Virus record (IMG/VR): IMGVR_UViG_3300031965_000018
Span: 1 to 64,000 of that record
Source of the DNA: a virus
DNA length: 64,000 nucleotides
Strand: one strand, 5' to 3'
Part shown: positions 10,459-37,900 of the stretch, one piece after another
Numbering within the stretch: position 1 is the first letter of the stretch
Layout: the number at the start of each line of letters is the position of its first letter
Translations under genes and position numbers: made by a program
Notes under the pieces: model-generated
The model's database searches: none
Told to the model about the DNA's origin: nothing
What the model saw: only the letters and a program-made list of their open reading frames with translations

Positions 10459-10525
10459 AGATCGCGTCGGGCGTGACTATACGCGCGGCCCGAGGCGAAA
10501 GTAAAGATGGAAACGGTGCTTCCGA

Positions 10526-10924: not shown

Positions 10925-12997
10925 CGTCTCGCCTTTCGCTTCCCGCTCCTCCGTCTTCGACTCCAGCGGTAACACCCCAGTGGGCGCCGGTCCCTCATAC
11001 CCAACCACTGTCTTCCCTTGAGTACTACCCTCCCATACTCTGGTCCTCGTAAACCCAAATCGTTGCATAATCTCTGAGATACGCATAGAGCCAGACCGTT
11101 CACGTCTAGCCACTTCGATGCCTAGTACATCCCAAATGACATTTGTTGTCACCTTACGCCGCCCATTTAATGAAACAGGCAGATTCTCCACCAATTCCCC
11201 AATAATCTCCTCCCACGCATCCATCTCTCGACGTTCATCTTGCTGCTCACCAGCAATGGCCCACAGTGCCTCAGGGAGTCGTATACTCTCACCTTTGTCT
11301 TCTCTCGCATTAGCCTCGGCCCAAAGCTGGTCACGGAGGGCTCGGATCTTCCCCACGTTAAATCGTTTCACGCGCACCGGCCAGAACCGTCGTGCGCCTG
11401 TCGGGTCGGCCAGATACCCTCCACCAGCTGGATTCGTCGTCCCTATGATGATGAATTGCCTCGCACGCTCCACGGGCAGCCTCGCATAGGCCATACGAGC
11501 GGGTCCATCTACCTGCCTCGATAGCGTGGCCTTGAGTTGCTCAGAGTCGGCCTTGCGTTTCCCGGCCAGGTCTGATGCCTCGACAATCCACTTTCCAATG
11601 GTGCCCTCGATGAGTTGCTGGCTTCGGACGTGCAACGGTAGGTCATCCGAGAACCACTCGGGTTTCGGGCACAGCGCACTGAGCGCACTCGACTTTTCCA
11701 TACCCTGCCCGCTCTCAAGGACAAGCATCTCATCGAACTTACAGCCAGGTGATCGGATACGGCGGACAGCGGCCACCAGCACCATGGCACTGACGGTCCT
11801 CGTATACTCGTTGTCCTCGGCTCCGGCATAGTCAATCAACCACGTATCGATGCGCGGCTCGCCATCCCAGGTCAGTGTATTGAGATACTCCTTGACCGGG
11901 TGGAAGCCATTCTCCCAGGCCAGGTGGCGTATGACCTTATCGAAGAATTCAAAGCTGGGGCGAAAATGAAACTCAGTATCGACGCGCAGCCATAAGGCTG
12001 TGAGCACTCGGTCTTCCAGTGGCTCGCCATTGACGATCAGTTTGTCGGAGAACTCGTTATAGGCCAGACGCACCTCTAGAGCCTCGATGGCGTGCTTGAT
12101 GTTCTCTTGGTCGTCCTTGACGATGTTACCGTCTTTGGTGCGGCGGAAGTCGCTGTCTCGGCCAAGCCACTCGAAGATTCGGGCCAGGACTCGCTTCCCA
12201 TTGTCACCTAAGTACTTGGCTAGTGATGGGCCACCCTTCGACCGCACCTGGGCGTTTTCGAGACGCGCGGCCGTCGATTCGAGCACCAGGCGAATGTCCG
12301 ATACCTCGGTATTCTGGCAATAGATGGAGATCGCTTCGCCCATCAACTGACACTCGTCTTTGGTGAAGCCGAGCTTGAGCATGAAGCCAGCCCAGGCGAG
12401 CCGTGGCTCATGACCAAAGCCGAATACACCGAGGTACTTCGATAGGATCATGGAGATGGCGGATAGAGCGACCGATTGACGTAACTGCCCGGCCTCTAGA
12501 TGGGCTGGGGTGTCGTGACGACGAAACTTGAGTTGCTCCTTATGTCTCGGGTCGTTCTTATCTACCCACATCGATGGCGGGACCATCGACTGGAACCCCA
12601 ATGTGCCATCGTTCTTTGTCCCTCGAATCTCGATGAGGGTCGTGCCGTCGATGTCATCGTAGCGATAAGTGGGTATTGCCTCGTTGGCGGTATAGAGACA
12701 GTGGGAGACGAACTTACTGTCACGGCCATAGACGAATCCGGTGGAGGGGAGGATCTTCTGGGCGACCTTCGTGCCGTCGGCCCAATCAATATCTATGTCG
12801 TGCAGAAACTTGCCCGGCTCTACTTCAATGCCAAGCAGCAGACCCACTCGATGTGTGTCTTCCTTATATTGCCCTGCCGTATAGGTCTTCGTGGGCCAAT
12901 CCTTCTCTTTCGGCCCTTTGCTGCTGCCCTCGGCCTTCCATAGAACAATACGGTAGTGATTGTCAAGATAGCGCTGAACGATGTTAGCGCCCGTCAT
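10901..12997 (-). CDS. bifunctional primase-polymerase / VirE-type (SF3-like) NTPase
   Basis: The N-terminal prim-pol region has LHDIDIDW. The C-terminal VirE-like region has LVLESGQGMEKSSAL (variant Walker A) and FIIIGTTN. The likely start is ATG 12997 (MTGANIVQRYL). Confidence 0.7.
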   Translation of the reverse strand: MTGANIVQRYLDNHYRIVLWKAEGSSKGPKEKDWPTKTYTAGQYKEDTHRVGLLLGIEVEPGKFLHDIDIDWADGTKVAQKILPSTGFVYGRDSKFVSHCLYTANEAIPTYRYDDIDGTTLIEIRGTKNDGTLGFQSMVPPSMWVDKNDPRHKEQLKFRRHDTPAHLEAGQLRQSVALSAISMILSKYLGVFGFGHEPRLAWAGFMLKLGFTKDECQLMGEAISIYCQNTEVSDIRLVLESTAARLENAQVRSKGGPSLAKYLGDNGKRVLARIFEWLGRDSDFRRTKDGNIVKDDQENIKHAIEALEVRLAYNEFSDKLIVNGEPLEDRVLTALWLRVDTEFHFRPSFEFFDKVIRHLAWENGFHPVKEYLNTLTWDGEPRIDTWLIDYAGAEDNEYTRTVSAMVLVAAVRRIRSPGCKFDEMLVLESGQGMEKSSALSALCPKPEWFSDDLPLHVRSQQLIEGTIGKWIVEASDLAGKRKADSEQLKATLSRQVDGPARMAYARLPVERARQFIIIGTTNPAGGGYLADPTGARRFWPVRVKRFNVGKIRALRDQLWAEANAREDKGESIRLPEALWAIAGEQQDERREMDAWEEIIGELVENLPVSLNGRRKVTTNVIWDVLGIEVARRERSGSMRISEIMQRFGFTRTRVWEGSTQGKTVVGYEGPAPTGVLPLESKTEEREAKGETGNVQKEG

Positions 12998-13962: not shown

Positions 13963-13986
13963 CCTTAGTGTATGTATGGAGGACAG

Positions 13987-16158
13987 ATGAGTGCAAAGCA
14001 ACCAACTCCCGTCCCACCCGGTGCGGTGAAACCACCGCCACCTCCTGCTCCACCGAAACCAAGAGATGGCACCATGCGCAGCCCTAGTCTCTTTGATGAT
14101 CTCGAAGATGAGCGGCGCGCGACGGAGGGCTGGGTGCCCGACGAACCGCCACAAATTGCGAGTCGTGGCGTCAAGCACATCGTCCTAAACTTTGAGACCA
14201 CTGGCCTGCGATGGTGGGACCGGGATCGGCCACTCGCGGCATCGGTTTGTTTCCCTGACGGCACGGCTCGCTACATCTCATGGGGTCACCGTGGTGGGAA
14301 CATCGCAGAAGAGACGGCCCGCCGATGGGCTCAACGCGAGTTGCGCGATCTGCATATCGAGAACATCAATACGCGCTTCGACGTGCACCAAGGCAAGACC
14401 TGGGGTATTGATCTTGAGGCGCAGAATTGCACCGTCTCAGATATTAGTCATTACGCGGCCCTGCTCGATGACCACCGCAAGACATTCAGCCTGGACCAGT
14501 TGATTCGAGACTTACTGGGTGAAGAGCCGATGGCGAGGCTAGACGAGTCTCGCATGGTAGACTATCACGCAGAGGAGGCCGCGCCTAGAGCGAAATACAA
14601 TGCTCAGATAGTGCGGCGACTGCATGAGGTAATGTGGCCGCGCATAGTGGCGGAGGATTTAGAGCGGGTCGTGGCACTCGAATCCAAGGTCATTTACCCG
14701 GTTTGCGAGATGGAGCGCAATGGCGTGCCCATAGACCTTGAACTCCTCGACCACTATCTCAAGGCATCAAAAGCCGCCTATGAGCGTTGTCTCTATGACC
14801 TCATCAAGCTCGTAGGGTTTCAGGTCGATCCAGGCAGCCCCACACACCGCAAGCGATTGTTCGAGCATCTCAAACTACCGTTGAGCTATTTAGGCTCGGG
14901 TCGCGCGTCCTTCACCGACGCGATCACGAAGGAACACGAGCACATCCCAGCCATCGCCCTACTGCGACAGGCCACGAAGATTGCGAGTATCCGCTCGAAA
15001 TACCTCTTGAAATATCAGAAGAACGCCGACAGCAACGGGATCATTCGCTACGCACTCCACCAGCTACGGGCGCAGAAGGATGAGCTCAGCGACTACGATA
15101 CTGGTGGCACCGTTACGGGCCGGTTCTCGTCTAGTGCCTTGACGACGGACCCGGATGGTGGGATAAACATCCAGCAAGTAATGAAAGCCTCAAAGCAACG
15201 CGTGGCGTTTGGCTATGAGGAAGATGACAACTCGCATGACGATGAGATTTACATTATTCGTCGGCTACACGTCCCGCCAAGCGGGCGTCAGTGGATGGCG
15301 TCGGATGCGATGCAAGAAGAATATCGCATCTTTGCGAGCTACGTCGGTAATCCAGCCATACTGGCAGCGTATCGAGAGAATCCCTTGATGAGCTTCCATA
15401 AGTATATGTGGGCGCGCGTCAAACGGTTCAAGCCGGACCAGACGTATCGGCAGCAGAAGGATCTCAACTTCGCCTACATCTATGGCGCAGGGATGCTCAA
15501 ACAGGCTCTAATGCTCGGGCATATCACGAAGTCCGAGTACGACGACATTAAGAAGACCCGGCGCTACGACCGGCGCTACGACCACCCCAGGTTGGAAGAG
15601 ACGCGGGAGGTTCGCCGCATCTATGAGCAGGAGATTCCCGAGGTCAAGAACCTGCTTGCTCTAGCGGCGCACATTGCGAAACCTGTTTGCGACAAGGACT
15701 GTTTCGACCCGCGCAACGCGGCCCTCATGCGTAGGCTGCACGACTCCGAGGAGCATCGTGGCTATGTGCGCACGATTCTCGGCCGACGCAGTCGGTTCCC
15801 GAATGGGAATCGGTTACACAAAGCCTTCAACTCGATTGATCAAGGCTCGGGCGCGGATATCATGAAGCAGAAGATCATAGAGCTTCACGAGGATCGACAT
15901 CGCACTGGGTTGACGCTTCGCTATACGGTCCATGATGAGCTAGATGGGGATATTCCGCAGGGAGCGGATGGGGAAGAGTCGTTGCGGTTGATTCATACTG
16001 TTTTGAACCAACAGTCGTTCCCACAATTGAAGGTGCCGATCCTGTGGGAAGTGTCGAGTGGGCCGACGTGGGCGGACTGTAAGGAAACGGAGTCGGAGTT
16101 TGCATCGTCGGATGCAGTGAAGTCGCTACTCGGTATTCACGATTCGCAGGATGAGTAA
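13987..16158 (+). CDS. family A DNA polymerase with 3'-5' exonuclease domain
   Basis: Exo I VLNFETTGL; motif A DAMQEEYRIFA; motif B KDLNFAYIYGAG; motif C YTVHDELDGD. SD GGAGGA precedes ATG 13987. Confidence 0.9.
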   Translation: MSAKQPTPVPPGAVKPPPPPAPPKPRDGTMRSPSLFDDLEDERRATEGWVPDEPPQIASRGVKHIVLNFETTGLRWWDRDRPLAASVCFPDGTARYISWGHRGGNIAEETARRWAQRELRDLHIENINTRFDVHQGKTWGIDLEAQNCTVSDISHYAALLDDHRKTFSLDQLIRDLLGEEPMARLDESRMVDYHAEEAAPRAKYNAQIVRRLHEVMWPRIVAEDLERVVALESKVIYPVCEMERNGVPIDLELLDHYLKASKAAYERCLYDLIKLVGFQVDPGSPTHRKRLFEHLKLPLSYLGSGRASFTDAITKEHEHIPAIALLRQATKIASIRSKYLLKYQKNADSNGIIRYALHQLRAQKDELSDYDTGGTVTGRFSSSALTTDPDGGINIQQVMKASKQRVAFGYEEDDNSHDDEIYIIRRLHVPPSGRQWMASDAMQEEYRIFASYVGNPAILAAYRENPLMSFHKYMWARVKRFKPDQTYRQQKDLNFAYIYGAGMLKQALMLGHITKSEYDDIKKTRRYDRRYDHPRLEETREVRRIYEQEIPEVKNLLALAAHIAKPVCDKDCFDPRNAALMRRLHDSEEHRGYVRTILGRRSRFPNGNRLHKAFNSIDQGSGADIMKQKIIELHEDRHRTGLTLRYTVHDELDGDIPQGADGEESLRLIHTVLNQQSFPQLKVPILWEVSSGPTWADCKETESEFASSDAVKSLLGIHDSQDE

Positions 16159-19582: not shown

Positions 19583-19971
19583 CCGAACATGAACTCTTAG
19601 CCGAGTGTCTCAAATCACTAACTCCACTAGTCGAGTCAAACGGTGGGGTAGTGATCAAGCATGCCGACGCTAGCACGGCCGGTATACCAGACGTATCAGT
19701 AACGGTCAATGGCCGCACCTCATGGTGGGAGTTCAAACATGCGAATCCGAGGGTCAAAGGCACCGAGCTACAGCGACTCACGGCCCGACGTTTGGCCAAT
19801 GCGGGTATCTGCTGGTACGTAGTCTATCAGACGCTACCCTCCGGTACCACGACCCATCTCGTGCGTCCATCCGCTGTGGGCGTGAACGGACATTTCCAGT
19901 CCGATCACTCGCACGCCGGGATCGACCACCGTTTTGTCGTTAATTTCATTTTGGAGCGTCATGCCGCCTAA
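19570..19971 (+). CDS. VRR-NUC domain nuclease (PD-(D/E)xK)
   Basis: GIPDVSV...SWWEFKH...ELQRLTARRLANAG matches the VRR-NUC D...ExK...Q pattern. It pairs with the SNF2 helicase further downstream, as in many phages. Confidence 0.6.
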   Translation: MVEMTEHELLAECLKSLTPLVESNGGVVIKHADASTAGIPDVSVTVNGRTSWWEFKHANPRVKGTELQRLTARRLANAGICWYVVYQTLPSGTTTHLVRPSAVGVNGHFQSDHSHAGIDHRFVVNFILERHAA

Positions 19972-20704
19972 AGTCCCATCCTACCTCCCGCGTCCGCTAC
20001 GGCGGGCGACTCCGGCCCGCCCGAGGGTTTACCCTACTCCGGCCGCGAACGGCCCGCCTACGGGCGCTCCGGCCGTTTCTCGGGCCTCTCCGGCTCGGCC
20101 CGTCTCGGCGTTCCGGCCCGCTCCGACGACGGCGGAAACGGGCGGGATCTTTACCTATACCGGCCGGCACATTTCGCCGCTCCGACTGCGCACGGAGGAC
20201 GTCTGTATCGAGGATATTGCCCACGGCCTGGCCTTGATGAATCGGTTCGTCGGTCAGACGCCACGGCCCATCTCCGTCGCACAGCACTCGGTCTACGTCA
20301 GTCGTCTTTGCGAGTCACACGGCCCACGAGTCGCCCTTCAAGCCTTACTCCATGACGCCAGCGAAGCATATCTGGGCGATATGTCGAAGTGGGTGAAGGG
20401 GATGCCGGAGATGGAAGGGTTTCGGAAGGCGGAAGCGCAAGCTCAGATGACTATCTATGAGTCGTTTGGACTATCGTGTCTAGAGCATGAGAGTATCGAG
20501 GAAGCAGACCGGCTCATGGTACGCTATGAGGCGTACGCGAGTTGGGGCGCGAAGATGCCGCTGTTCCTCCGGCCGCGCTATCCGGTGCCGACGAAGGAAG
20601 AATGCGAGCGCGTGGGGATGTGGCGACCGTGGACGTGGCTCATCTCAGAGGAAAGTTTTCTGAACCAGTTCAACGCACTCGTTTCGGACTTAGAAGACCG
20701 ATGA
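19961..20704 (+). CDS. HD-domain phosphohydrolase (YfbR-like 5'-deoxynucleotidase type) with Pro/Ala-rich N-terminal extension
   Basis: VAQHSVYV ... LLHDASEAYLGD is an H...HD...D metal motif. No alternative in-frame start lies between the GC-rich insert and the HD core. Confidence 0.6.
   Translation: MPPKVPSYLPRPLRRATPARPRVYPTPAANGPPTGAPAVSRASPARPVSAFRPAPTTAETGGIFTYTGRHISPLRLRTEDVCIEDIAHGLALMNRFVGQTPRPISVAQHSVYVSRLCESHGPRVALQALLHDASEAYLGDMSKWVKGMPEMEGFRKAEAQAQMTIYESFGLSCLEHESIEEADRLMVRYEAYASWGAKMPLFLRPRYPVPTKEECERVGMWRPWTWLISEESFLNQFNALVSDLEDR
19988..20150. repeat. GC-rich hairpin element, copy C (inside the HD gene 5' region)
   Basis: Shares 17 identical nt cgaacggcccgcctacg (20046-20062) with 62259-62275. 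Also has the same CCGCCTACGGGC-type modules as the 41.2-kb and 62.2-kb loci. Confidence 0.6.
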
Positions 20705-20765: not shown

Positions 20766-21890
20766 ATGAGAATCGCAGTCCTCTATTGGCCCACGACGTC
20801 TGTCGGCGGGATCGCTTCAGACCTTCTCAATTTGCGGTCGTGCGCTCTACGGAAGGGGCATACGTTCGATGTCTATCGGAGCGGTGACCTCTCGACGATT
20901 GAGCCGAGAAAGTTCAGAGAGCGGAAGCTGATTCGTGGCGGTGACAGCTTCATCCATATCGACGGAGAGGCATCGCACGCCAGTCGGCAGGTGCGCTACT
21001 CGGCCGATATGCTCAACCGTAACTACGACATCGTCATCCTGGGTTTCCTCTGCCCACATCCCAAGAAAGAGATACCTGAGCCGCGATTTTTGGAGTTACT
21101 CACGCGGCTGAAGATGCCGATTGTCGGCCGCGTGACAGATGGCTACTTCGATACGTATGCCGAGTGGGGCAAGCAGACACTCGCCCTATGCCAGCGCTCA
21201 ACGGTCGTCGTCCCGTCCTATGCGAAGCCACTGACGGATCGTGAGATCACGAACTTTGAAATCTACCGCGCGCCATTCGACGCCGAGGCATACGGGATCG
21301 ACTTAGAGGCAAAGCGCTCACCGACTGAGCTTACCATCTGGCCCAGCCAGCAGAAGAACATCAAAGGTTGGAACCCATTCCTGGAGATGCTCGCGGAGAT
21401 ACCCGGTGACGTAGAGATTTACAACTGCGGTATCCGCTACTACCAGACGCGCACATCAGACGAGTGGATTCGCGGCATCGGCAAGAATAACTTCCACCCG
21501 GAGTTCGGCGGCCTTGGGCGCCATACGTATTTCGGCTGGCAGACGCTCGACCATATGCGCAGTGAGGTCTACCCGCGAGCGTGGTTCATGGTAGACTTTC
21601 AAGGCATGGGAAAGCCACGCTATGAGGCGTATCGTCTTGGGTCCTACAACCACACGACGGTCGAAGCTCTTTGGTATGGGATGCTGCCGGTTCTGTATCA
21701 TACGTCGATGAACGCGGGATTGCCGCCTGAGGTATTCTTCGCGGTTGAGGAAGCGAGGGACTTCATCACGGACCATGACCGTGCCCTCGAACAATTCCAC
21801 GACGCGACACGACTAGCCCAGGCCCGTCAGTTCGTGCTCGATCACCACTCGGCCGATCATCAATTGGCCTATCTCTTGGGTGATCTGTGA
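20766..21890 (+). CDS. GT-B fold glycosyltransferase (GT1/GT4-like)
   Basis: The MRIAVLYWPTTSVGGIASDL opening and a C-terminal E...EALWYGMLPV block fit GT4-type enzymes. First gene of the coupled operon. Confidence 0.55.
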   Translation: MRIAVLYWPTTSVGGIASDLLNLRSCALRKGHTFDVYRSGDLSTIEPRKFRERKLIRGGDSFIHIDGEASHASRQVRYSADMLNRNYDIVILGFLCPHPKKEIPEPRFLELLTRLKMPIVGRVTDGYFDTYAEWGKQTLALCQRSTVVVPSYAKPLTDREITNFEIYRAPFDAEAYGIDLEAKRSPTELTIWPSQQKNIKGWNPFLEMLAEIPGDVEIYNCGIRYYQTRTSDEWIRGIGKNNFHPEFGGLGRHTYFGWQTLDHMRSEVYPRAWFMVDFQGMGKPRYEAYRLGSYNHTTVEALWYGMLPVLYHTSMNAGLPPEVFFAVEEARDFITDHDRALEQFHDATRLAQARQFVLDHHSADHQLAYLLGDL

Positions 21891-22618
21891 AAGTCTATAT
21901 CCCAACCATTGGTCGAGTGGACCGACAAGTAACGCTTGCAGCGTTGCCAGAGCGATGGAAAGAACGCACATGGCTCATTCAGCAGAATAGTGAGTCTCAT
22001 ACTCACCAGTATTTTTCTTGCCCAGTAACTCGCATTGCCCAGGTTCGTCAGTGGGTGGTAGAAGAAACTGAAGGCGAGAAGCTCTTGATGCTGGACGATG
22101 ATCTTCAGTTCTTTACACGAACAATCGAAGATCCAAGGCTACGTCGGGCGACTCCCGAGGAAGTAGGGATAGCGCTGGATATGCTCGACTCGTGGTTAGA
22201 TGAACGGGCTATGGTTGGGTTTGGCCCGGTCTTTATGAACCAGCAATATCGAGTGCCGTATATTGAATGCGCGAGAGTAGCGCACTCTTTCGGATTCCAG
22301 CGGAGTGTGTTACGTTCTGAAGGCATTCGTTTCACTGACGTCGTCTTTTCCGAAGACTTCCACGTCACGCTCTCTTTACTAGAGCGAGGTTATGCGAACC
22401 GAATAAGTACACTCAATGTAGTCAAACAGGTGAAGGAAGGTGCAAGTGGTGGCATTTCGACTTACGCTACCACAGAAATCCGAGAGGAAGCTAAGCAACA
22501 ATTTGCCGCTCTCCACCCGAAGACCGTTACACTTTACCATCGAGACGTGCCCGATCAATTCGGGATGACTCTTTCGTGTCGAATTGCTTGGAAGCGAGCG
22601 TTTGGAGTTGAACGATGA
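21887..22618 (+). CDS. GT-A-like glycosyltransferase (DxD)
   Basis: MKVYIPTIGRVDR... then LLMLDDDLQFF (DxD). Any relation to base-J/TET-associated DNA glycosyltransferases needs a profile search. Confidence 0.4.
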   Translation: MKVYIPTIGRVDRQVTLAALPERWKERTWLIQQNSESHTHQYFSCPVTRIAQVRQWVVEETEGEKLLMLDDDLQFFTRTIEDPRLRRATPEEVGIALDMLDSWLDERAMVGFGPVFMNQQYRVPYIECARVAHSFGFQRSVLRSEGIRFTDVVFSEDFHVTLSLLERGYANRISTLNVVKQVKEGASGGISTYATTEIREEAKQQFAALHPKTVTLYHRDVPDQFGMTLSCRIAWKRAFGVER

Positions 22619-23298
22619 TCGACCGTGAACTGTTGGTCTTAGCTTGCGGCCGTTCCGGCACGCTCTATACGTCAAAGGTCTTTCGCGCGGCGGGTTTCGA
22701 CCTACGGCACGAGCAGATCGGCGCATTCGGTTCTTCATCCATGTATATGGTACCGAGGGTCACGGATTGCTCCATTGTCAATGCGGGGCAGAAGGTGCCA
22801 ATTCACGCCGGGGAGAATCGAGCCGACTACCGTTTTAAACACGTCTGGCACCAGACGCGCCACCCGCTTCGCGCCATCGACTCCCTCGCAAAGTCATTCA
22901 CTCGGAAGGTTCGCCTTTGGACCGGGGAGCAGATTCGCTTTGCGATGCCTGGCCGCTCCACTGAACTCCAGTGCCCTATCGAGGATAAGATCCACTGGGC
23001 GATGCGCTATTGGTTCTACAACAATGCGTTTTGTGGGGTACAAGCCGAGTGGCGCTACCAGTTGGAGAACTTTCCATGGGGTGAGATGCTGGAGCGACTC
23101 GGGTATCAGTCAGGTCACCCGCTCCCGGTTATCCCAGCGACGACCAACCGCAACCTCCGCTTCGCATTCAAGAGCGCCGAGCAGGCTGCAATGATTCGAG
23201 AGACGATCTACGACACGACGTGGGAGACACTCGAACGAATCAACCCCTATCTAACAGATACGATTCGTAGGATGGCTCGGAGGTATGGCTATGAGTAA
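22615..23298 (+). CDS. sulfotransferase-like protein (P-loop-kinase-related fold)
   Basis: LVLACGRSGTLYTSKVF resembles the 5'-PSB loop and WHQTRHPLRAIDSL resembles the 3'-PB motif. There is no Walker lysine. A kinase cannot be excluded by eye. Confidence 0.4.
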   Translation: MIDRELLVLACGRSGTLYTSKVFRAAGFDLRHEQIGAFGSSSMYMVPRVTDCSIVNAGQKVPIHAGENRADYRFKHVWHQTRHPLRAIDSLAKSFTRKVRLWTGEQIRFAMPGRSTELQCPIEDKIHWAMRYWFYNNAFCGVQAEWRYQLENFPWGEMLERLGYQSGHPLPVIPATTNRNLRFAFKSAEQAAMIRETIYDTTWETLERINPYLTDTIRRMARRYGYE

Positions 23299-23860
23299 GA
23301 TTCTCGCCATCGAGCCGCACGCCGACGATCTGTTCATCTCGGTCGGATGGACACTTGACGCAATGATTAAGGCCGGGCACGAAGTGACGACCTTGACCGT
23401 CTTTGGAGACGAGCGACGACAGAAGGAGGCGCAAGAATACGCGCGACTGCTTGGGGCCGAGCACCGAGCCTTACAACTGCCGGAGTCTGGGTCCATGGAT
23501 GGCGAAGTTGACAAGCGAGCATTACACGACGCCATAGTCGCACTCGATTCTAGCTTTAGCCAGATCTTTGACCAGGTTTGGTGTCCGCTCGGTATCTACC
23601 ACGAAGAGCATAAAGCTGTACGTCGAGCGGTAGACACCTTATTCAAGAATCCGATCTATTACCTCGACATGCCGTATGCGGTGAAAGAGAAGAACCGCAT
23701 CGAGGCAAATGAAGCCATAAGGAAGCGACACGTGATCTCTCTCATCGCACCCACGCCGCGCAAGTGGAAGGGCGCGGAGTTGATCTTCAAGTCACAATCC
23801 GCGTTCTTTCACTTCGAGCGGGATAACCTATTGCGCTGTTGGGAGATGTTGGTGCGATGA
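23291..23860 (+). CDS. PIG-L / LmbE family N-acetylglucosaminyl deacetylase
   Basis: ILAIEPHADDLFISVGWTL, GHEVTTLTVFGD and YHEEHKAV correspond to the family's AHPDD, G-x-x-V and HxDH motifs. SD GGAGG lies 7 nt before ATG 23291. Confidence 0.6.
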   Translation: MSKILAIEPHADDLFISVGWTLDAMIKAGHEVTTLTVFGDERRQKEAQEYARLLGAEHRALQLPESGSMDGEVDKRALHDAIVALDSSFSQIFDQVWCPLGIYHEEHKAVRRAVDTLFKNPIYYLDMPYAVKEKNRIEANEAIRKRHVISLIAPTPRKWKGAELIFKSQSAFFHFERDNLLRCWEMLVR

Positions 23861-24033
23861 TCAACATCTATCTCCGCTGCCCGAGTTGCGCTTACGTCTG
23901 GCACGCCACGTCGGTTGTTGAGGGCGCGTGGTGGGCGCCGAAATACCCGGAGGTTGACGCGAGATTCCAGTGCTACTGCCCGAAGTGTAGTGCCGCGCCG
24001 CCGATGGAACTTGAACGGACGGAGAATCAATGA
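23857..24033 (+). CDS. small zinc-ribbon protein
   Basis: MINIYLRCPSCAYVW...QCYCPKCSA has CxxC...CxxC. ATGA-coupled at both ends. Confidence 0.4.
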   Translation: MINIYLRCPSCAYVWHATSVVEGAWWAPKYPEVDARFQCYCPKCSAAPPMELERTENQ

Positions 24034-24614
24034 CCGTAGCAGACCGCATCGAGAACTACCATGCCGTGACCGGGTTTCCCGAGTCGTTGTTTGCCTCTGG
24101 TGACGGGCGCATCTGCGGCGTGTGGATCATGGGTAATGACTATCGCGTGAAGTCCACGTTCTATGGAGGATACCCGGCCGGTTACTTGCGGCGCGTTCGC
24201 GCTCTATTCCCTGAGAAGCAGGCCGTCTTGCACTTATTCTCGGGTCGAGTGGACACAGAAACGATGCCTGGCAAGACGGTCGATATCAATAGTGACTTGG
24301 CGCCGGACTACGTCGATGACGCGCAGACGCTCACACAAGTGCCTCTTGAAGATTTTGACCTCGTGTTAGCCGATCCTCCCTATTCGGTCGAGGACGCTGA
24401 TCATTATCAAACGACGATGGTGAAACGGAACGTCGTGATGCGCGTTCTCGGGCAACGGTTGCGACCAGGCTCTCACGTAGTTTGGCTCGACCAAGTACTC
24501 CCGATGTATCGCAAGGACAGTCTTAGCTTATACGGCGTCATTGGAATGGTGAAGTCCACGAATCATCGTTTCCGCGTCGTATCGATTTTTGAGCGAATTG
24601 GAGAGACATGTTAA
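24030..24614 (+). CDS. DNA methyltransferase (N6-adenine/N4-cytosine type, DPPY)
   Basis: Motif IV LVLADPPYS and motif I-like VLHLFSG. Compact, 194 aa. Confidence 0.6.
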   Translation: MTVADRIENYHAVTGFPESLFASGDGRICGVWIMGNDYRVKSTFYGGYPAGYLRRVRALFPEKQAVLHLFSGRVDTETMPGKTVDINSDLAPDYVDDAQTLTQVPLEDFDLVLADPPYSVEDADHYQTTMVKRNVVMRVLGQRLRPGSHVVWLDQVLPMYRKDSLSLYGVIGMVKSTNHRFRVVSIFERIGETC

Positions 24615-25582
24615 CCGAAGCACCAGAGTCACTGTTCTGGTATTGGATAAGTGAGAGACATTCCATCTACCTCCGGCGCGCGGCCGGGTTGCCGAAGCCA
24701 TGGACCGACGATCCGATCTTGCAGCAGTACAAGTTCACCAATCCGTTTCGTGAGAACGACCGAGGGACGGTGTGGTTGCGCGAGAACTTTCTGGAGCCGC
24801 ATCGTATACCCGACGAGACGTGGAGCGAGCTTGTTAAGATCGAAACGATGCAGCACGGTCGATTGAGTCACTACTCGAAATCAGAATGGCTATCCTTACT
24901 TGCCTTCAACATCGCATGGTACAGAATGTTCAACTGGTGGGGCACCGGCCGTCTCCTCGGGTGGCAGACCGATTGGGATCCGGCAGCGGTCATCGAGACA
25001 CTGACCCAAGCAAGTCTTCGCGGCGAGCAGGTTTTCACCGGCGCGCATATCGTCTACAGCCCGCCAGGACGGCCGAAGATCGACGCCATCGTGGACGTCT
25101 GCTCGGCACTCTATGATCTAACAGTTACGCAACGAGAGCTAGTCATCGACCCGCCGCACCATCGCTCGTTTGTCGAAGCGTGTCGCGCGTATCGATCCTT
25201 GGAGCGAGCCTTCTATTGGCTTCAATCCGTCTATTGCGTCGGCGGGTTCATGGCTTATGAGATGGTCACCGATATGCGGCATACGCGGCTCCTTGAGGAC
25301 GCGACGGACATCATGACGTGGGCCAATATGGGGCCGGGTGCGAAGCGTGGCTTGACGAGACTTGGACTCCCGGCGCGGAACCAAGATGAGGGGTGCGAGT
25401 CGATGCGTGGCCTCTTATCGAGGGCAAATACACAGCTTCCGGTGAATCATCCGGCAGCTGATTGGCCTACTCCCGAGATGCGCGATATCGAACACAGCCT
25501 GTGTGAATTCGATAAGTATTGCCGCGTGAAGTTCGGAGAAGGCAAGCCACGGTCAATGTACCCTGGGAGGAAGAATGACTAG
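24608..25582 (+). CDS. aGPT-Pplase-like protein (alpha-glutamyl/putrescinyl thymine pyrophosphorylase family)
   Basis: I recognise WYWISERHSIYLRRAAGLPKPWTDDPILQQYKFTNPFRENDRGTVWL as the characteristic N-terminal signature of this thymidine-hypermodification family. Needs HMM confirmation. Confidence 0.5.
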   Translation: MLTEAPESLFWYWISERHSIYLRRAAGLPKPWTDDPILQQYKFTNPFRENDRGTVWLRENFLEPHRIPDETWSELVKIETMQHGRLSHYSKSEWLSLLAFNIAWYRMFNWWGTGRLLGWQTDWDPAAVIETLTQASLRGEQVFTGAHIVYSPPGRPKIDAIVDVCSALYDLTVTQRELVIDPPHHRSFVEACRAYRSLERAFYWLQSVYCVGGFMAYEMVTDMRHTRLLEDATDIMTWANMGPGAKRGLTRLGLPARNQDEGCESMRGLLSRANTQLPVNHPAADWPTPEMRDIEHSLCEFDKYCRVKFGEGKPRSMYPGRKND

Positions 25583-26651
25583 TCGTATTGTCGCCGTTGA
25601 TGTGAGGGATATTCTCCCTAATCCCTATCGTAATCTTGATAAGTATGTTTTAGACGCCACGAAGATCGATGCGCTTAAGCAGAGTTATGAGACTAGTGGC
25701 TTCTGGGATGGGTCAATTCAAGCACGGCCAAGTCCGACGATTCCAGATAAGTATGAGATTGCCTTTGGACATCACCGTATTGAGGCCGCTCGGATCAAAG
25801 GTATCACTCCAGTTGGGCTCGTCGTGTCTCAACGCTCGAATGCCGATATGCTCCGCATGATGGCCCACGAGAACAGCACCGACTTCCGCAACGACATGCG
25901 CCCGACGATTGAAACCATCCGCGCCGTCATCGAGGCATATGGCCGTGGGGAGATTGAGTTGGAGGTAATTACGGGACACGGAGCTAACCAGCAACAATAT
26001 AGTTTACCGAGCGGTAAACATTACTCCCTCGCAACCGTCGCCCGCTTCCTCAATTGGGTAAAAAATAGTGACAACCAGGCCACCACCGCATGCCGCGTGG
26101 CGTTTGATGCCTATCGGGAGGAAGCGGCGTCGGCGGAGGCGATTGAGCAGTTGGGTGGGAAGGAAGCCACTGAGACCGCGATCCTCGCCATTAACACGGC
26201 CATTCGCGCGGCGCGAGTGTCGGCACATGAGAAGGGATTGACTCCCTCACAAACCCGACAAGCTGAAAAAGCGGCAGCAGAAGCAACAGCGAACGCTATA
26301 CATAACTATGGAGCTGCCCGAGGTCGCGGTGAAGCCGTCTCGGCGGGTAAGGCGGCGGTAGATGCTATCGTTGGAAAGAAGAAACCGAAGACGGTGCCGG
26401 TTGAATTCTACATCGCTACCGTCAATAGTAAGAGTCTCGCCTATAACGCCTATGGAGAATTCTTGAAGCAGTGCGACGTGTTGTTACCCGTGTTAGAGCA
26501 CGTCCGACCGGAGGCCAAAGAAGCCCTAGCAGCGGCACTAGAGAGAATGCTTGAGCGCACGACTCAACCCGTATCTGCCCTCATCCGTGCCCTGCGTGCA
26601 GAAGACGTAGAGCAATTAACAAGGTTGCTTTCCAAGGAGACTTCGTCATGA
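25575..26651 (+). CDS. ParB/sulfiredoxin-like N-terminal domain protein
   Basis: ILPNPYRNL and YEIAFGHHRIEAARIKG form a GxxR-type ParB box. The long helical, Ala-rich C-terminus overlaps both neighbouring genes. Confidence 0.6.
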   Translation: MTSRIVAVDVRDILPNPYRNLDKYVLDATKIDALKQSYETSGFWDGSIQARPSPTIPDKYEIAFGHHRIEAARIKGITPVGLVVSQRSNADMLRMMAHENSTDFRNDMRPTIETIRAVIEAYGRGEIELEVITGHGANQQQYSLPSGKHYSLATVARFLNWVKNSDNQATTACRVAFDAYREEAASAEAIEQLGGKEATETAILAINTAIRAARVSAHEKGLTPSQTRQAEKAAAEATANAIHNYGAARGRGEAVSAGKAAVDAIVGKKKPKTVPVEFYIATVNSKSLAYNAYGEFLKQCDVLLPVLEHVRPEAKEALAAALERMLERTTQPVSALIRALRAEDVEQLTRLLSKETSS

Positions 26652-27283
26652 GAGAATCTATGCGATCGATTGGTGATATTGCTCAGAGAACCAGAGAGAC
26701 ACGAGATATCATCGATTACCCCGACGGTACTATTGCGTGGGGGGAGCTTACTCGTGTAGGTACATACTACTTCCGTACTACGAAAGGTCGAGACAGACTT
26801 TTGCTCCCGCTCGATGACCATAACCCGTGGCGCGACCGTGGAGATCAAGGCCATCGGGTTTCCAATATAGACTTAGCTGTCTTGATTGTAAACTCTCACC
26901 GAAAGTCAGACCACCTGAGTTACGAGGAAGATTTGCGAGTCGTTAAAAAGGTATTACATGACGCTTATAAATCGGTGATTGAAGTCGTTACTAACCTAGG
27001 AAATACCGTCATTGCCGTAGATGCTGAAGGTATGGCGTTAGGAGTCGAGGGCAATACTAACCCACAAGCAGGATTTGACCTAGCAGATTCTCCTGCGGGA
27101 CGGGCGCTTAAAATGCAAAAGATTGCCTCACTCGGAGGATCAGCGAAACGTGTGAATCGCGACATCGAAAGTCTGCGTGCACCAGAACCAAAGCTAGACG
27201 AACTCTATGGGGTAAATCAACTCGTATCGGGGGCAGCAGCTCAAGTATTGTACAACGAGAACAGATATGAGGATGACTTGTGA
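26648..27283 (+). CDS. hypothetical protein within modification operon
   Basis: 211-aa track ORF, ATGA/GTGA-coupled. No motif recognised. Confidence 0.5.
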   Translation: MRESMRSIGDIAQRTRETRDIIDYPDGTIAWGELTRVGTYYFRTTKGRDRLLLPLDDHNPWRDRGDQGHRVSNIDLAVLIVNSHRKSDHLSYEEDLRVVKKVLHDAYKSVIEVVTNLGNTVIAVDAEGMALGVEGNTNPQAGFDLADSPAGRALKMQKIASLGGSAKRVNRDIESLRAPEPKLDELYGVNQLVSGAAAQVLYNENRYEDDL

Positions 27284-28293
27284 TCACCCTCCGCGTCCGC
27301 AACGTCCACGAGGCACTCCCCGTCGCCATCGAGTTACTCCATCGCATCGGCATCCGGCGCGAGTCTCGCAACGGGCCAGTTCTCCAGTCGCCCGAGCCGG
27401 TCGCCACGGTATATGAGCATCCGACTGAGCGCGTCATCTTCTGGCCCGAGCGGGATGCGAATCCATTCTTGCATTTGTACGAGAGCCTGTGGATGCTCGC
27501 CGGGCATAATGACCTCGCACCATTGCTCCGGTATACAAAACGGTTCGCAGAGTTTTCCGACGACGGCGAGACGCTGCACGGAGCGTATGGGTATCGGTGG
27601 CGGAACCATTTTCGTATCCAGGCAGTGAAGAGCGAGTACCATAAGACGGACCAACTCTCCGTCATAGCCGAGCAGCTCAAAGCGAATCCCGAGGATCGCC
27701 GGTGCGTTCTGGGCATGTGGGACCCGGAAGCCGATCTTGGCCGCCAGGGCAAGGATCTGCCCTGTAACGACACCGCCACGTTCCAGATCGGCCCAGACGG
27801 GCGTTTGAACATGGTCGTCTTCTGCCGCTCCAACGACATCGTCTGGGGTGCCTACGGCGCGAATGCCGTCCACTTCAGCTATCTCCTCGAATACATGGCC
27901 GCGTGGATCGGCGTCCCGGTCGGCACGTATACGCAGGTCAGCGTCAACTGGCACGCGTATCTAAAGACGCTAGAGCCGGTGCGGAAGTTGAATCTGGCGT
28001 ATGGTGACCCGTATGGAAGTGGGCGCGTCCTCTCGCACTCGTTACCGTCAGCTGCTTTCGCCGGAGGTATCGAGGTCATCGACCGTGACATCTCCGAGAT
28101 TTTGCGGCAAGCTGATAGCGGTGAATGGAATGAGTGGACGGTGAAACTCAGCTGGTCCGCAAGCGTGATCTACATTCTTCATATGCACCATAACTGGAAA
28201 ACCAGAGGGCGTGCCTGGACTCTCAAATACGCCATACCCGTCGATGATTGGTCACTAGCCGCTATCGAGTGGCTGGAACGGAGGAAGGCGTGA
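27280..28293 (+). CDS. thymidylate synthase (ThyA) family enzyme, candidate deoxypyrimidylate hydroxymethylase
   Basis: ESLWMLAGHNDL, HGAYGYRWRNHF, DQLSVIAEQLKANPEDRRCVLGMWDP, catalytic DLPCN, FCRSNDIVWGAYGAN and NWHAY. There is about 70 aa of extra C-terminal sequence. Confidence 0.8.
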   Translation: MITLRVRNVHEALPVAIELLHRIGIRRESRNGPVLQSPEPVATVYEHPTERVIFWPERDANPFLHLYESLWMLAGHNDLAPLLRYTKRFAEFSDDGETLHGAYGYRWRNHFRIQAVKSEYHKTDQLSVIAEQLKANPEDRRCVLGMWDPEADLGRQGKDLPCNDTATFQIGPDGRLNMVVFCRSNDIVWGAYGANAVHFSYLLEYMAAWIGVPVGTYTQVSVNWHAYLKTLEPVRKLNLAYGDPYGSGRVLSHSLPSAAFAGGIEVIDRDISEILRQADSGEWNEWTVKLSWSASVIYILHMHHNWKTRGRAWTLKYAIPVDDWSLAAIEWLERRKA

Positions 28294-29005: not shown

Positions 29006-29662
29006 ATGAGAATCTCTTCCAAACGCCAATTCTTCGCCCTTTGGCGCGAGGGAGTCCTGGGGAACCGGACGTTGCTCTGGGATACGGTCGAGGAAGCCCT
29101 TGCCTACCGGCCTTCGGTCGCGCGTATCGGTTTCCGCGAACTGGGGAAGGCGGGCGGTGGGGCGTGGGAACTGGCGGCCCGTAGCGAGGCCCGTAGCGTC
29201 TCGGATCGGTGGCGCGCGGAAGGCCGGACGTTTATCCTGGACGGCTCGGTGCCGAACGATAAGAGCACGATGCAAGGCGAAGTCTGTCGGACGACGCGCG
29301 GGTTGGAAGGCTATCTGTGTTTTCGCAACTTCTTCCGAGTGCAATTCCCAGATCGCGGAGTCTGCGAGTTCAGTGGAGTCTATACGAACTTGAAACCTGG
29401 CGAGGGAGTAACGGTCCAACCGCTCACAGAACCGGGACTCCCGCCTATGCGCCAGACACTAGCACGAGGGCTCCATCGTCACTTCAGCTACGTCATGACG
29501 CGCTATCTCTTGGAGCGATACATGGACCCGTCTAGCCGCGATGACCTCGATATGCTTCTGGAGCAATACCCGGATGCGACCGTCGAGTTCACGTGCTTCA
29601 GCGTCAACGTCGGATTGTTTCCGAGGCGCAATACCATATTTTGGGAAGTGAGATCGTATTGA
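29006..29662 (+). CDS. hypothetical protein
   Basis: 218-aa track ORF after a 160-nt noncoding gap. No motif recognised. Confidence 0.5.
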   Translation: MRISSKRQFFALWREGVLGNRTLLWDTVEEALAYRPSVARIGFRELGKAGGGAWELAARSEARSVSDRWRAEGRTFILDGSVPNDKSTMQGEVCRTTRGLEGYLCFRNFFRVQFPDRGVCEFSGVYTNLKPGEGVTVQPLTEPGLPPMRQTLARGLHRHFSYVMTRYLLERYMDPSSRDDLDMLLEQYPDATVEFTCFSVNVGLFPRRNTIFWEVRSY

Positions 29663-33444: not shown

Positions 33445-33656
33445 AACCCACCAAGCGCCAGAAGCCATTCAAAGGCGGTCGCCTCGCACTTCCCTCGTGC
33501 GTCCTGCCAAAGATTCGCGCGGTCGTGGAGCGTGAGGCTCGGTTCTTTGGCGTCTCAAAGTCATTTGTGATTGCTGTTGCGCTGGCAGATATCTTCGGTA
33601 TCTCTGAGCAAGAGCACTATGCAGAGTCGAAGCCGAAGTTGAGGAGGGTGAAGTGA
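33441..33656 (+). CDS. ribbon-helix-helix (CopG/Arc-like) protein
   Basis: The GVSKSFVIAVALADIFG pattern fits a beta-strand plus helix RHH fold. ATGA-coupled. Confidence 0.4.
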   Translation: MKPTKRQKPFKGGRLALPSCVLPKIRAVVEREARFFGVSKSFVIAVALADIFGISEQEHYAESKPKLRRVK

Positions 33657-34129
33657 ATATCTACGGAGAGAACCACATCGAGTATCGTCACGATGAACAC
33701 GAGCGAGCTGAACTGGGACCTGGGCCGTGGCAAGATGAGCCAGACAAGGTTCAGTGGATCGACCGAGAGACGGGGCTGAATTGCCTCATCAAGCGAAATC
33801 CAATCGGAGCGTTGTGCGGCTACGTCGGAGTCGAAGCAACGCACCCACTACACGGCGTGAATTATGGCGATATGGACGACATTGAGGTTCATGGCGGACT
33901 GACCTACTCTAGCGCCTGCGATGGTGACGAGCAAACTGGCATTTGCCATGTTCCGGTTCAGGGTCGCGGCGAGGTCTGGTGGTTTGGCTTTGACTGTGCC
34001 CATGCTTTTGACTTGGCACCGTCAAGGAGATTGCGCAATTGGCTCTCAAAAGATGATATCTACCGCGACATTAACTACGTGAAGAGCGAAGTGGAGAAGC
34101 TCGCGCTCCAGCTGAAAGCGAGGGCATAG
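33653..34129 (+). CDS. conserved phage protein of unknown function
   Basis: GPWQDEPDKVQWIDRETGLNCLIKRNPIGALCGYVGV...HGGLTY...WWFGFDCAH is a pattern I recognise as recurrent in phages. It has no assigned function. Confidence 0.5.
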   Translation: MNIYGENHIEYRHDEHERAELGPGPWQDEPDKVQWIDRETGLNCLIKRNPIGALCGYVGVEATHPLHGVNYGDMDDIEVHGGLTYSSACDGDEQTGICHVPVQGRGEVWWFGFDCAHAFDLAPSRRLRNWLSKDDIYRDINYVKSEVEKLALQLKARA

Positions 34130-37434: not shown

Positions 37435-37632
37435 ATGTGGAAATGGAAGCTGGTAGTAAAGAAGACCGGACGAACGTGGGGTGTTTTTGACGAAGTGTCT
37501 GGTGACCTCGTTGAGGGCGGTTTCTTTCGACGCAGTGCGGCCGAGCAGTCTTTGCGCGATTGGGAAAAACAACTTTCGCAGGAAACAGCGGAAGACGCCG
37601 AGCGCGCGGCCGGTTGGGACCCCAACCCGTAG
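37435..37632 (+). CDS. hypothetical protein (cassette 2)
   Basis: MWKWKLVVKKTGRTWGVFDE... I take ATG 37435, not the track's ATG 37423, which is the AUG inside CUGAUGAG. Confidence 0.5.
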   Translation: MWKWKLVVKKTGRTWGVFDEVSGDLVEGGFFRRSAAEQSLRDWEKQLSQETAEDAERAAGWDPNP

Positions 37633-37692
37633 GCATACGAAATGGCGGAACAGTCCGCCATCGCCGGACTTAACCGGCCTGATGAGGTGCCT
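37631..37692 (+). ncRNA. type II hammerhead ribozyme motif, copy 3
   Basis: AGGCAU-AC-GAAA, UGGCGGA-ACAG-UCCGCCA, UC, GCCGG-ACUUAA-CCGGC, then CUGAUGAG-GUGCCU. Cleavage after C37662. Confidence 0.85.
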
Positions 37693-37693
37693 T

Positions 37694-37900
37694 ATGACTT
37701 TGATTAACACGACAACTCGCAACGCTTTCTGGCGCATCTCGCGCAAAGGTTCTACCGTCTACGTCATGTGGGGTCGAATCGGAACGCGCGGGCAGACCCG
37801 GCAGATCCGGTTCGCCAACGAGACTTCCGCCCGGACGTTCGTAGAGACTCGGATCGACTCCAAGATCGAGGATCGAGACTACGTGCCCGTGAGCCGGTAG
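37694..37900 (+). CDS. WGR domain protein (cassette 3)
   Basis: MTLINTTTRNAFWRISRKGSTVYVMWGRIGTRGQTRQIRFANETSARTFVETRIDSKIEDRDYVPV contains the WGRIG-x-GQ signature. Confidence 0.6.
   Translation: MTLINTTTRNAFWRISRKGSTVYVMWGRIGTRGQTRQIRFANETSARTFVETRIDSKIEDRDYVPVSR

Follow-up and report, generated by a model that had tools for sequence, protein, structure and literature searches.

To our knowledge, all known thymidine hypermodifications derived from 5-hydroxymethyl-2′-deoxyuridine (5-hmdU) use a kinase together with an amino-acid or polyamine transferase, and known DNA glycosylation attaches neutral hexoses or pentoses, or rare acidic sugars, to cytosine derivatives. The gene cluster considered here lies at positions 20766-28293 of a 64,000-nt stretch of phage DNA known from a metagenome (IMGVR_UViG_3300031965_000018, positions 1-64,000; the window, hereafter). 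Its ten + strand open reading frames (ORFs), numbered P1 to P10 in order, probably form, in whole or in part, a cassette for 5-hmdU-based DNA hypermodification in which an amino sugar is then attached and possibly sulfated, a reading we consider more probable than its rivals together and still far from secure.

The closest described systems are the clusters of the M6/PaMx11/ViI type (PMC5889632, PMC8989533), and M6 DNA carries 5-hmdU-derived bases (PMC8989533). With these clusters, the window shares a Mesyanzhinovviridae-like backbone, a deoxyuridine monophosphate (dUMP) hydroxymethylase (47% identity) and a PF18723 protein of the gp55 type (34%), with an HD phosphatase and a family A DNA polymerase (PolA) nearby and a variable tailoring slot upstream of the PF18723 gene. 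In contrast, the cassette here is without the P-loop 5-hmdU DNA kinase, the clade-2 transferase, and the pyridoxal phosphate (PLP), radical S-adenosylmethionine (SAM), flavin adenine dinucleotide and acetyltransferase enzymes; it has two glycosyltransferases, a deacetylase and a sulfotransferase-like protein instead. PhiJL001 (AY576273), a phage of Alphaproteobacteria, is the only deposited phage found to have a PF18723 gene, a TAGT-like GT-A glycosyltransferase gene and a dUMP hydroxymethylase gene side by side. In particular, its gp19 is of the PF18723 type, gp22 is a GT-A 'glucosyl transferase', gp24 is the adjacent ThyA homologue, and there is no kinase. PhiJL001 differs in having no GT-B, deacetylase or sulfotransferase-like gene, and its DNA is predicted to carry plain hexosyl-hmdU.

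Sugar transfer to DNA has its own precedents. The class comprising T4 alpha-glucosyltransferase (AGT), TAGT enzymes and base J synthesis has in common with the window, by prediction, that a nucleotide sugar donates its sugar to a 5-hydroxymethylpyrimidine in DNA, at the hydroxymethyl group; P1 has an AGT fold and P2 is a TAGT member, but the acceptor of the T4 AGT class is 5-hydroxymethylcytosine (5-hmC) and the predicted acceptor here is 5-hydroxymethyluracil (5-hmU). Base J, found in kinetoplastids, does use a 5-hmU acceptor, which is made by a dioxygenase. We know of no DNA glycosylation system in which transfer of an N-acetylhexosamine followed by deacetylation is a step. That sequence of reactions is familiar from other pathways: wherever a GT4 glycosyltransferase is paired with an LmbE protein (MshA/MshB, BshA/BshB, PIG-A/PIG-L), N-acetylglucosamine (GlcNAc) is transferred and then de-N-acetylated. 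The same pairing of enzyme families is kept in 16 of the 17 lineages compared here, where BshA, MshA and PimA resemble P1 in fold and BshB resembles P4. However, the acceptors in those pathways are inositol, malate and phosphatidylinositol, the predicted acceptor here is a nucleobase in DNA, and sequence identity to their enzymes is at background. The phages SP-15, YerA41 and Carin-5 (PMC5977210, PMC12686479) likewise have sugar-bearing thymidine derivatives, and the Carin-5 cluster has glycosyltransferases and a GlcNAc-deacetylase-like gene; in these phages, which are large myoviruses, the linker is a dihydroxypentyl group and the sugars are attached by phosphodiesters, and no PF18723 gene has been reported for them. 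Further, a survey describes glycosyltransferase genes of both the GT-A and the GT-B type close to ThyA homologues, in the company of ParB, methyltransferase and sugar-modifying genes (bioRxiv 10.1101/2023.12.21.572611). An incomplete literature search found no description of 5-hmdU that bears a hexosamine or a sulfate, and none of a DNA modification pathway that uses a deacetylase or a sulfotransferase. An earlier note on this stretch had called the tailoring combination unknown from any characterised modified base; its amino-sugar and sulfation logic is indeed new, but the idea of a sugar on a thymine derivative is older, given the glycosyltransferases reported next to ThyA homologues in the survey and the simpler layout of PhiJL001.

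Comparative genomics provides the strongest evidence for the cassette. Neighbourhoods of P1 homologues (loci with numbers such as L005) were fetched from public assemblies and IMG/VR, on contigs of 17-170 kb and with flanks of 8-10 kb, and the gene content of each lineage was determined by tblastn with the window proteins. The GT-B gene P1 recurs in 16 lineages other than the window, giving 17 in all, and the core gene set is found there in syntenic order, which is more than chance would give. A homologue of the PIG-L protein P4 is present in 16 of the 17, usually as the next gene after P1, and homologues of the PF18723 protein P7 and of the dUMP hydroxymethylase P10 are found together within the fetched flanks in 15. 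The sulfotransferase-like P3 occurs in five lineages, all of which also have P4, and the TAGT gene P2 occurs in two, the window and L015/L016; the latter has the full set in another order (PF18723, TAGT, GT-B, PIG-L, sulfotransferase-like, ThyA). An M6-type kinase is present in a single lineage (L021), and a clade-2 transferase, PLP or radical-SAM enzyme in none. The conserved module consists of P1, P4, P7 and P10 with P3 and P2 as facultative members, that is, five or six of the ten genes. The carbohydrate tailoring set of the earlier note is real and evolutionarily linked to P7 and P10 (15 of 17 lineages). Its ten-gene operon survives as the recurring P1, P4, P7 and P10, with P3 and P2 facultative, but not as regards P5, P6, P8 and P9, which are lineage-specific and have no counterparts in the other P1 modules. 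Overall, none of about 50,700 deposited phage genomes has the module, which does recur in metagenomes: tblastn searches of the deposited phage collection gave no match to P1, P3 or P6 and one marginal match to P4, and there is no cultured reference. Single-protein scans of IMG/VR with P1 and P3 returned nothing, but an alignment-based scan did find relatives. The features of the window are collected in Table 1.

Table 1. Genes of the cluster (P1 to P10), followed by associated genes of the window, with the evidence for each assignment.
Feature	Position	Strand	Evidence
P1, GT-B glycosyltransferase, T4 alpha-glucosyltransferase-like fold	20766-21890	+	AlphaFold model and Foldseek
P2, TAGT-family GT-A DNA glycosyltransferase	21887-22618	+	PF20691, 40.8 bits (cut-off 27.5); phrog_842, 2.5e-28
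P3, sulfotransferase-like protein	22615-23298	+	PAPS (3′-phosphoadenosine 5′-phosphosulfate) motifs; weak profile and fold matches
P4, LmbE/PIG-L metal-dependent de-N-acetylase	23285-23860	+	PF02585, 34.9 bits (cut-off 28.2); weak BshB1 match
P5, small Cys-rich protein (CxxC ... CxCxxC), possible zinc ribbon	23857-24033	+	sequence; sub-threshold zinc-finger matches
P6, small DPPY amino-methyltransferase	24030-24614	+	phrog_3816, 4.7e-43; no Pfam match
P7, PF18723 protein, M6 gp55 type, aGPT-Pplase clade 1 ('HMUDK_hel' in current Pfam)	24608-25582	+	164 bits, 5.5e-48
P8, ParB/Srx N-terminal-domain protein (GHHR motif) with long helical C-terminal part	25575-26651	+	weak ParB matches
P9, protein without assigned function	26648-27283	+	no Pfam, PHROG or NCBIfam match
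P10, dUMP hydroxymethylase (5-hmdUMP synthase), ThyA family	27280-28293	+	PF00303 (Thymidylat_synt), 79 bits; phrog_5131, 4.9e-107
PolA, phage family A DNA polymerase (context, outside the cassette)	13972-16158	+	PF00476, 98 bits
HD-domain deoxynucleoside 5′-monophosphate phosphatase	19934-20704	+	phrog_318, 2.6e-42; weak YfbR-like and HD_3 matches
Conserved 218-aa protein, following the hydroxymethylase gene	29006-29662	+	no Pfam or PHROG match

The base supply is the best-defined part of the pathway. P10 is 47% identical to M6 gp58 and 40% identical to PhiJL001 gp24. In ThyA homologues, the residue at position 177 distinguishes uracil (Asn) from cytosine (Asp), the residue at position 143 distinguishes methyl (Leu) from hydroxymethyl (acidic) transfer, and Asn at position 169 is the mark of a cytosine hydroxylase (PMC13326640). 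P10, in E. coli numbering, has Cys146, Asp in place of Leu143, Asp169 and Asn177, and the same four residues are found in 11 of 11 homologues from related clusters. Because of this residue signature, P10 is assigned as a dUMP hydroxymethylase and the pathway is taken to proceed from 5-hmdU and not from a cytosine derivative. The combination of Asp143, Asn177 and Asp169, together with the identity to the M6 enzyme, also separates P10 from an ordinary thymidylate synthase, which the earlier note had named as the finding that would undo its proposal; the P10 residues and the PF18723 domain of P7 support its view that a ThyA homologue plus an aGPT-Pplase points to thymidine hypermodification via 5-hmdU. 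In this first and well-supported step, P10 would convert dUMP to 5-hmdUMP and the HD phosphatase would trim the competing pool, after which cellular or viral kinases and the phage PolA would place 5-hmdU in new DNA, replacing some or all of the thymidine.

The kinase, the clade-2 transferase and the PLP and radical-SAM enzymes of M6-like phages have no recognisable counterpart here. Searches of the window by tblastn with M6 gp51 (transferase), gp52 (PLP), gp53 (radical SAM) and gp54 (kinase), and with gp37 (transferase) and gp40 (kinase) of Bhz59, gave no match, and there was no Pfam match to a kinase or to a TET/JBP dioxygenase among about 50 window ORFs. No plausible window gene has a Walker A motif, and any kinase would have to be very divergent. 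With neither a P-loop 5-hmdU DNA kinase nor a clade-2 amino-acid:DNA transferase detected, M6/ViI-type chemistry is unlikely, and direct attachment of a sugar to the oxygen of the hydroxymethyl group, on the pattern of T4 and base J, is therefore more likely than phosphate-leaving-group chemistry.

P1 is the candidate for this transfer. It has no match in any profile library (Pfam, PHROG, NCBIfam) and 30 relatives among 5.8 billion proteins. An AlphaFold2 model built from the alignment of these relatives has a GT-B fold (predicted local distance difference test score, pLDDT, of 95; predicted template modelling score, pTM, of 0.92), and its best solved match in Foldseek is T4 AGT (1y6f, E = 7e-13, template modelling (TM) score 0.70), followed by BshA (about 0.60), PimA and MshA. 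Sequence identity to T4 AGT is only about 13%, and sequence searches of the Protein Data Bank (PDB) with P1 and P3 were uninformative. P1 is predicted from this model to transfer an N-acetylhexosamine (HexNAc) to the hydroxymethyl group of 5-hmdU in DNA; in the second step, as suggested by fold and synteny, it would place the sugar on the hydroxymethyl oxygen within the DNA polymer, most simply with host UDP-GlcNAc as the donor. In two of the loci compared (L009, at 10001-11770, and L010), the P1-family GT-B is preceded in the same protein by a class I SAM methyltransferase domain (Methyltransf_23, 30.9 bits), a fusion that hints at a methylated sugar in that lineage.

The second glycosyltransferase, P2, contains the motifs R10, DDD70-72 and EDF156-158 and is 27% identical to PhiJL001 gp22. 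The R/DDD/EDF motifs have been described for phage DNA GT-A enzymes, and tested members of the TAGT family glycosylate 5hmC in DNA (bioRxiv 10.1101/2023.12.21.572611). P2 is predicted to add a second sugar or an alternative first sugar; in the latter case it would make an alternative mono-glycoside, and either role is a weaker part of the proposed pathway. A separate observation concerns a TAGT domain in a different setting: an ORF of at least 1188 aa in L029 (11543-13774; JGI 3300039444 contig) has both TAGT and DNA_pol_A Pfam matches, and appears to be a glycosyltransferase fused to a replicative polymerase.

P4 fits the LmbE family both in its fold match and in its metal and catalytic motifs ((A/E)PHxDD and HxxH). 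Every one of its best PDB matches is a GlcNAc de-N-acetylase (Dbv21, Orf2*, BshB, diacetylchitobiose deacetylase), and 16 of 16 homologues keep the metal-binding and catalytic residues E10, H12, D14, D15 and H109. P4 is predicted to turn HexNAc into hexosamine on the DNA-linked sugar. As the near-obligate pairing of a GT4-like enzyme with an LmbE protein suggests, the third step would strip the N-acetyl group, and its product would be 5-(hexosaminyl-oxymethyl)-dU, in which the amine is free and carries a positive charge.

P3 would act after P4. Beyond its 16 close relatives, its wider family comprises about 3,600 proteins, mostly of about 200 aa and without a Pfam model; the 16 family members searched against Pfam gave no match. 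Across the 16 close and about 150 wider relatives, R13-S14-G15-T16, H32-E33, H79, R82, P84, S90, N137 and E151 are invariant or nearly so. R13-S14-G15-T16, which fits the 5′-phosphosulfate-binding loop of sulfotransferases ((P/G)(K/R)(S/T)G(S/T)), lies in a GxRSGT loop without the Walker lysine, and the spacing R82-x-P84-x5-S90 is that of the sulfotransferase 3′-phosphate motif (R-x-P-x5-S). When a wide P3 profile was compared with the PDB, the best genuine match, at E = 0.014, was the CurM sulfotransferase; only the second motif lies within the alignment that scores (HQVRHPLxxIxS versus LVRHPYSVIES), and the first loop (GcgRSGT versus SPRSGS in CurM) falls in a non-scoring segment (-3.2 bits), where there is motif resemblance only. 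CurM (4gbm) is also the top PDB match in Foldseek (E = 0.026, TM 0.41), with nucleotide kinases also listed; among the predicted viral structures in BFVD, the list is headed by a capsular polysaccharide synthesis protein from a giant virus (E = 6e-10, TM 0.67), after which come many viral sulfotransferases. Distant relatives of P3 have weak Sulfotransfer_3/4 matches (about 2e-3) or are fused to glycosyltransferase domains, and some members of the wider family are fused to GT92, GT2 or Capsule_synth domains. The wider family appears to be an undescribed, glycan-associated one, and P3 is best read as 'sulfotransferase-like, glycan-associated', its family membership being insecure. P3 was also considered as the missing 5-hmdU kinase and rejected in view of its loop without the Walker lysine, its sulfotransferase 3′-phosphate motif and its presence in only five lineages.

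P3 is predicted to perform PAPS-dependent sulfation of the amino sugar. In this fourth and weaker step, the sulfate would be placed on nitrogen, as by the heparan N-deacetylase/N-sulfotransferase, or on oxygen. The nested distribution of the genes fits the order of the steps, P4 accompanying P1 nearly everywhere and P3 being confined to lineages that have P4. The neutral monoisotopic masses calculated for the predicted nucleosides are 258.085 (5-hmdU), 461.165 (HexNAc-hmdU), 419.154 (HexN-hmdU, with hexosamine), 499.111 (sulfated) and 581.207 (HexN + Hex). As the end product, one would expect a bulky, cationic or zwitterionic adduct in the major groove that blocks restriction and other nuclease defences, and its function would resemble that of the amine-bearing thymidines of M6, ViI and PhiW-14. 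A more complete proposal, in which thymine becomes a sulfated amino-sugar adduct through GlcNAc transfer, de-N-acetylation and N- or O-sulfation, and in which PF18723 is the common 5-hmdU-handling subunit of the amino-acid-type and sugar-type pathways, is offered tentatively and is rather unlikely to be right in all its parts.

In amino-acid-type and sugar-type cassettes alike, P7 is the steady partner of the hydroxymethylase. It is 34-38% identical to M6 gp55 (34%), PhiJL001 gp19 (37%) and Bhz59 gp41, and a clade 1 annotation has been given to its homologue in phage AN14. P7 is accordingly a genuine aGPT-Pplase relative, on which the earlier note had staked its reading, with the refinement that P7 is of the gp55-type clade 1 and that the catalytic clade-2 transferase is undetected. 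The motifs PWT, GPGxxRG and E-x-x-L-C-E-x-x-K are kept in 11 homologues, and there is no P-loop. By eye, E-x-x-L-C (Glu295 to Cys299 in P7) corresponds to E-T-V-L-C of M6 gp51, an enzyme whose catalysis depends on a conserved Cys and a Glu close to it (PMC8989533); the BLASTP comparison of P7 with gp51 gives E = 0.71. Because of its resemblance to this catalytic element, P7 may do more than bind DNA and may be an enzyme. P7 probably acts on 5-hmdU in DNA, through base recognition and flipping or through a Cys-dependent reaction.

Several points weigh against an O-linked, possibly sulfated amino sugar on 5-hmdU. The proposal is drawn wholly from homology, predicted folds and gene neighbourhood. 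The HexNAc donor of P1 is suggested solely by its LmbE-family partner and is unreadable from the sequence of P1. The assignment of P3 is marginal, given its best profile E-value of 0.014, its TM score of 0.41, the lack of a Pfam match and the kinases among its weak fold matches. Two loci on large contigs (L018 and L019) have P1 and P4, with no P7 or P10 within 8 kb. Further, L021 (8001-14451; IMGVR_UViG_3300044904_000056, 104 kb) combines GT-B, PIG-L, PF18723 and ThyA genes with a P-loop 5-hmdU DNA kinase (5-HMUDK) gene like that of M6 gp54 (29%, E = 2e-13); no clade-2 transferase was found there, and the locus may be a hybrid of both chemistries. Finally, the ubiquity of P7 and its clade-2-like Cys/Glu motif are unexplained by simple O-glycosylation, and the former may point to a different chemistry.

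Such a chemistry is offered by an N-linked amino sugar, an alternative that we regard as unlikely and yet as the best of those considered. P1 and P4 would make a free hexosaminide, sulfation by P3 or a kinase would activate the 5-hydroxymethyl group, and the Cys/Glu pair of P7 would form an exocyclic methylene and couple the amine to the C5-methylene, as clade-2 transferases do. The universality of P7 in the module and the likeness of its E-x-x-L-C to the catalytic region of M6 gp51 are what this mechanism would call for, but gp55, the M6 homologue of P7, is unneeded for group transfer, that is, for the first transfer product, in vitro (PMC8989533). BshA and MshA, which are among the closest folds to P1, would suit the making of a small-molecule glycoside, but the best fold is that of the DNA-acting T4 AGT (TM 0.70 versus about 0.60 for BshA), and no acceptor-making genes for such a glycoside were found. 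In favour of activation, CurM sulfotransferase, the nearest solved relative of P3, sulfates a hydroxyl to create a leaving group, and L021 joins a 5-HMUDK-like kinase with P1, P4 and P7; however, most lineages have no activating enzyme (P3 is present in 5 of 17, the kinase in 1 of 17), and the combination of P1, P4, P7 and P10 persists all the same.

It is more improbable that the sugar enzymes act off DNA, on a host envelope glycan (for superinfection exclusion or seroconversion) or on a virion protein, with the adjoining module yielding 5-hmdU DNA or a P7-dependent base. GT4 enzymes, LmbE deacetylases and sulfotransferases do normally act on lipids, small molecules and polysaccharides, but the top fold match of P1 is a DNA glucosyltransferase and P2 belongs to the TAGT family. 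Likewise, the wider family of P3 includes fusions to capsule-synthesis and glycosyltransferase domains, and a capsular polysaccharide synthesis protein leads its viral fold matches; against this, the sugar genes are embedded and translationally coupled between PolA/HD and PF18723/ThyA, a linkage that recurs in 15 of 17 lineages with varied backbones, and no signal peptide or membrane segment was seen by eye in these proteins. A glycosylated cytosine derivative (5hmC or 5-hydroxycytosine), as in T-even, RB69 and DLP3-type phages, is scarcely credible, for although ThyA homologues beside GT-B and GT-A genes are typical of cytosine-glycosylating phages (PMC13326640) and phrog_842 is annotated as a hydroxymethylcytosine glucosyltransferase, P10 and all module homologues have Asn177 (uracil) and Asp169 (no hydroxylase signature), the closest characterised relatives of P10 are the dUMP hydroxymethylases of M6-like phages, and PF18723 is known only from thymidine-hypermodifying phages.

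The remaining genes of the cluster, P5, P6, P8 and P9, are not demonstrably part of the O-linked amino-sugar pathway. P6, whose DPPY region aligns weakly to M.RsrI, is most likely a DNA N6-adenine or N4-cytosine methylase, and methylation of the sugar amine is a possible alternative. Unrelated methyltransferases lie inside the module elsewhere (MT-A70 genes in L005, L011 and L015; a Methyltransf_23 domain in L009), and their recurrence makes a methylation step possible in some variants; P6 itself has no detectable similarity to these MT-A70 genes. The ParB match of P8 is below the cut-off in Pfam (PF02195, ParB_N, 20.3 bits against 26.3) and is also seen with TIGR00180 (1.7e-7), and 71 homologues of P8 carry PF02195; those examined sit in unrelated neighbourhoods, in prophage early regions or bacterial loci, and are without P9, so that P8 and P9 are not a conserved two-gene cassette. 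ParB-type activators of phage DNA-modifying enzymes have been described, including the 5mYOX-associated ParB (PMC13229309). No cognate enzyme for P8 was found, there being no TET/JBP gene in the ORFs scanned and no P8 homologue in the other P1 modules; P8 is a lineage-specific insertion that may serve as a DNA-loading helper. P9 gave no tblastn match in any locus fetched, and it has no similarity to M6 gp56 or PhiJL001 gp23, which occupy the same slot.

The window as a whole, from a 69-kb metagenome contig (sample ENA ERZ27256875), is a tailed-phage genome that encodes a terminase, a portal protein and a major capsid protein, together with a VapE-type primase/helicase, an SNF2 helicase, an exonuclease and a ligase. 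It has no DNA-level relatives among 50,697 deposited phage genomes; its nearest relatives at the protein level are Mesyanzhinovviridae, namely the M6/YuA-like Pseudomonas phages, Bordetella and Stenotrophomonas phages, and PhiJL001. All ten + strand ORFs lie where the earlier note had placed them, and nine of its ten gene identities are borne out, the tenth being P9, which is without detectable relatives; searches of the window proteins against Pfam, PHROG and NCBIfam confirmed those of P2, P4, P6, P7, P10 and, weakly, P8. From P1 to P10, successive genes overlap by 4, 4, 14, 22, 4, 7, 8, 4 and 4 nt. The 22-nt overlap shrinks to 4 nt when the zinc-ribbon gene P5 starts at ATG 23857 instead of TTG 23839, and with that start the overlaps of 1-14 nt described before fit. 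Promoter and terminator scans gave sites no more frequent than in shuffled sequence, leaving the operon boundaries undefined.

Profile matches also confirm the two genes reported upstream, those of the HD phosphohydrolase and PolA. A PolA gene adjoins the module in L005, L006, L007, L009, L011, L013 and L015, and in M6, L006 and L007 there are HD genes beside the ThyA homologue. The HD phosphatase likely serves pool control, for example by depleting dTMP. Its ORF opens at a TTG with about 70 Pro/Ala-rich residues that no homologue shares, and the homologues align from about residue 72; translation probably begins near that residue, some 210 nt past the TTG. Downstream of P10, homologues of the conserved 218-aa protein directly follow the ThyA homologue in L005 (44%), L013 and L015, and this protein may be an additional, unrecognised member of the module. 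Elsewhere in the window, the - strand ORF at 6034-7056, just downstream of the portal gene, has a weak PI3_PI4_kinase match (E = 3e-5, below the cut-off), which is odd for a head module, and the replication region includes a WGR-domain protein (37481-37900, + strand; 1e-12) as well as, at 33653-34129 (+ strand), a phrog_2164 protein whose MazG-like match is weak.

The module is absent from deposited phages and recurrent in metagenomes, and metagenome-guided reconstitution is therefore the only way in; the minimal gene set for it is defined as P10, P1 and P4, with or without P3, P2 and P7. If the proposed pathway is true, its enzymes would be new reagents for DNA labelling and for restriction-resistant DNA, and they would give a functional handle on the PF18723 (M6 gp55-type) protein. 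The LmbE deacetylases and sulfotransferases would join the enzyme classes that work on DNA; on the more complete, sulfated proposal, these would be the first LmbE deacetylase and the first PAPS sulfotransferase to do so, and the product would be the first sulfated DNA modification. Overall, the cassette predicts a third route to DNA hypermodification in phages, in which an amino sugar would be built on thymine by the logic of lipid and thiol pathways, with optional sulfation.

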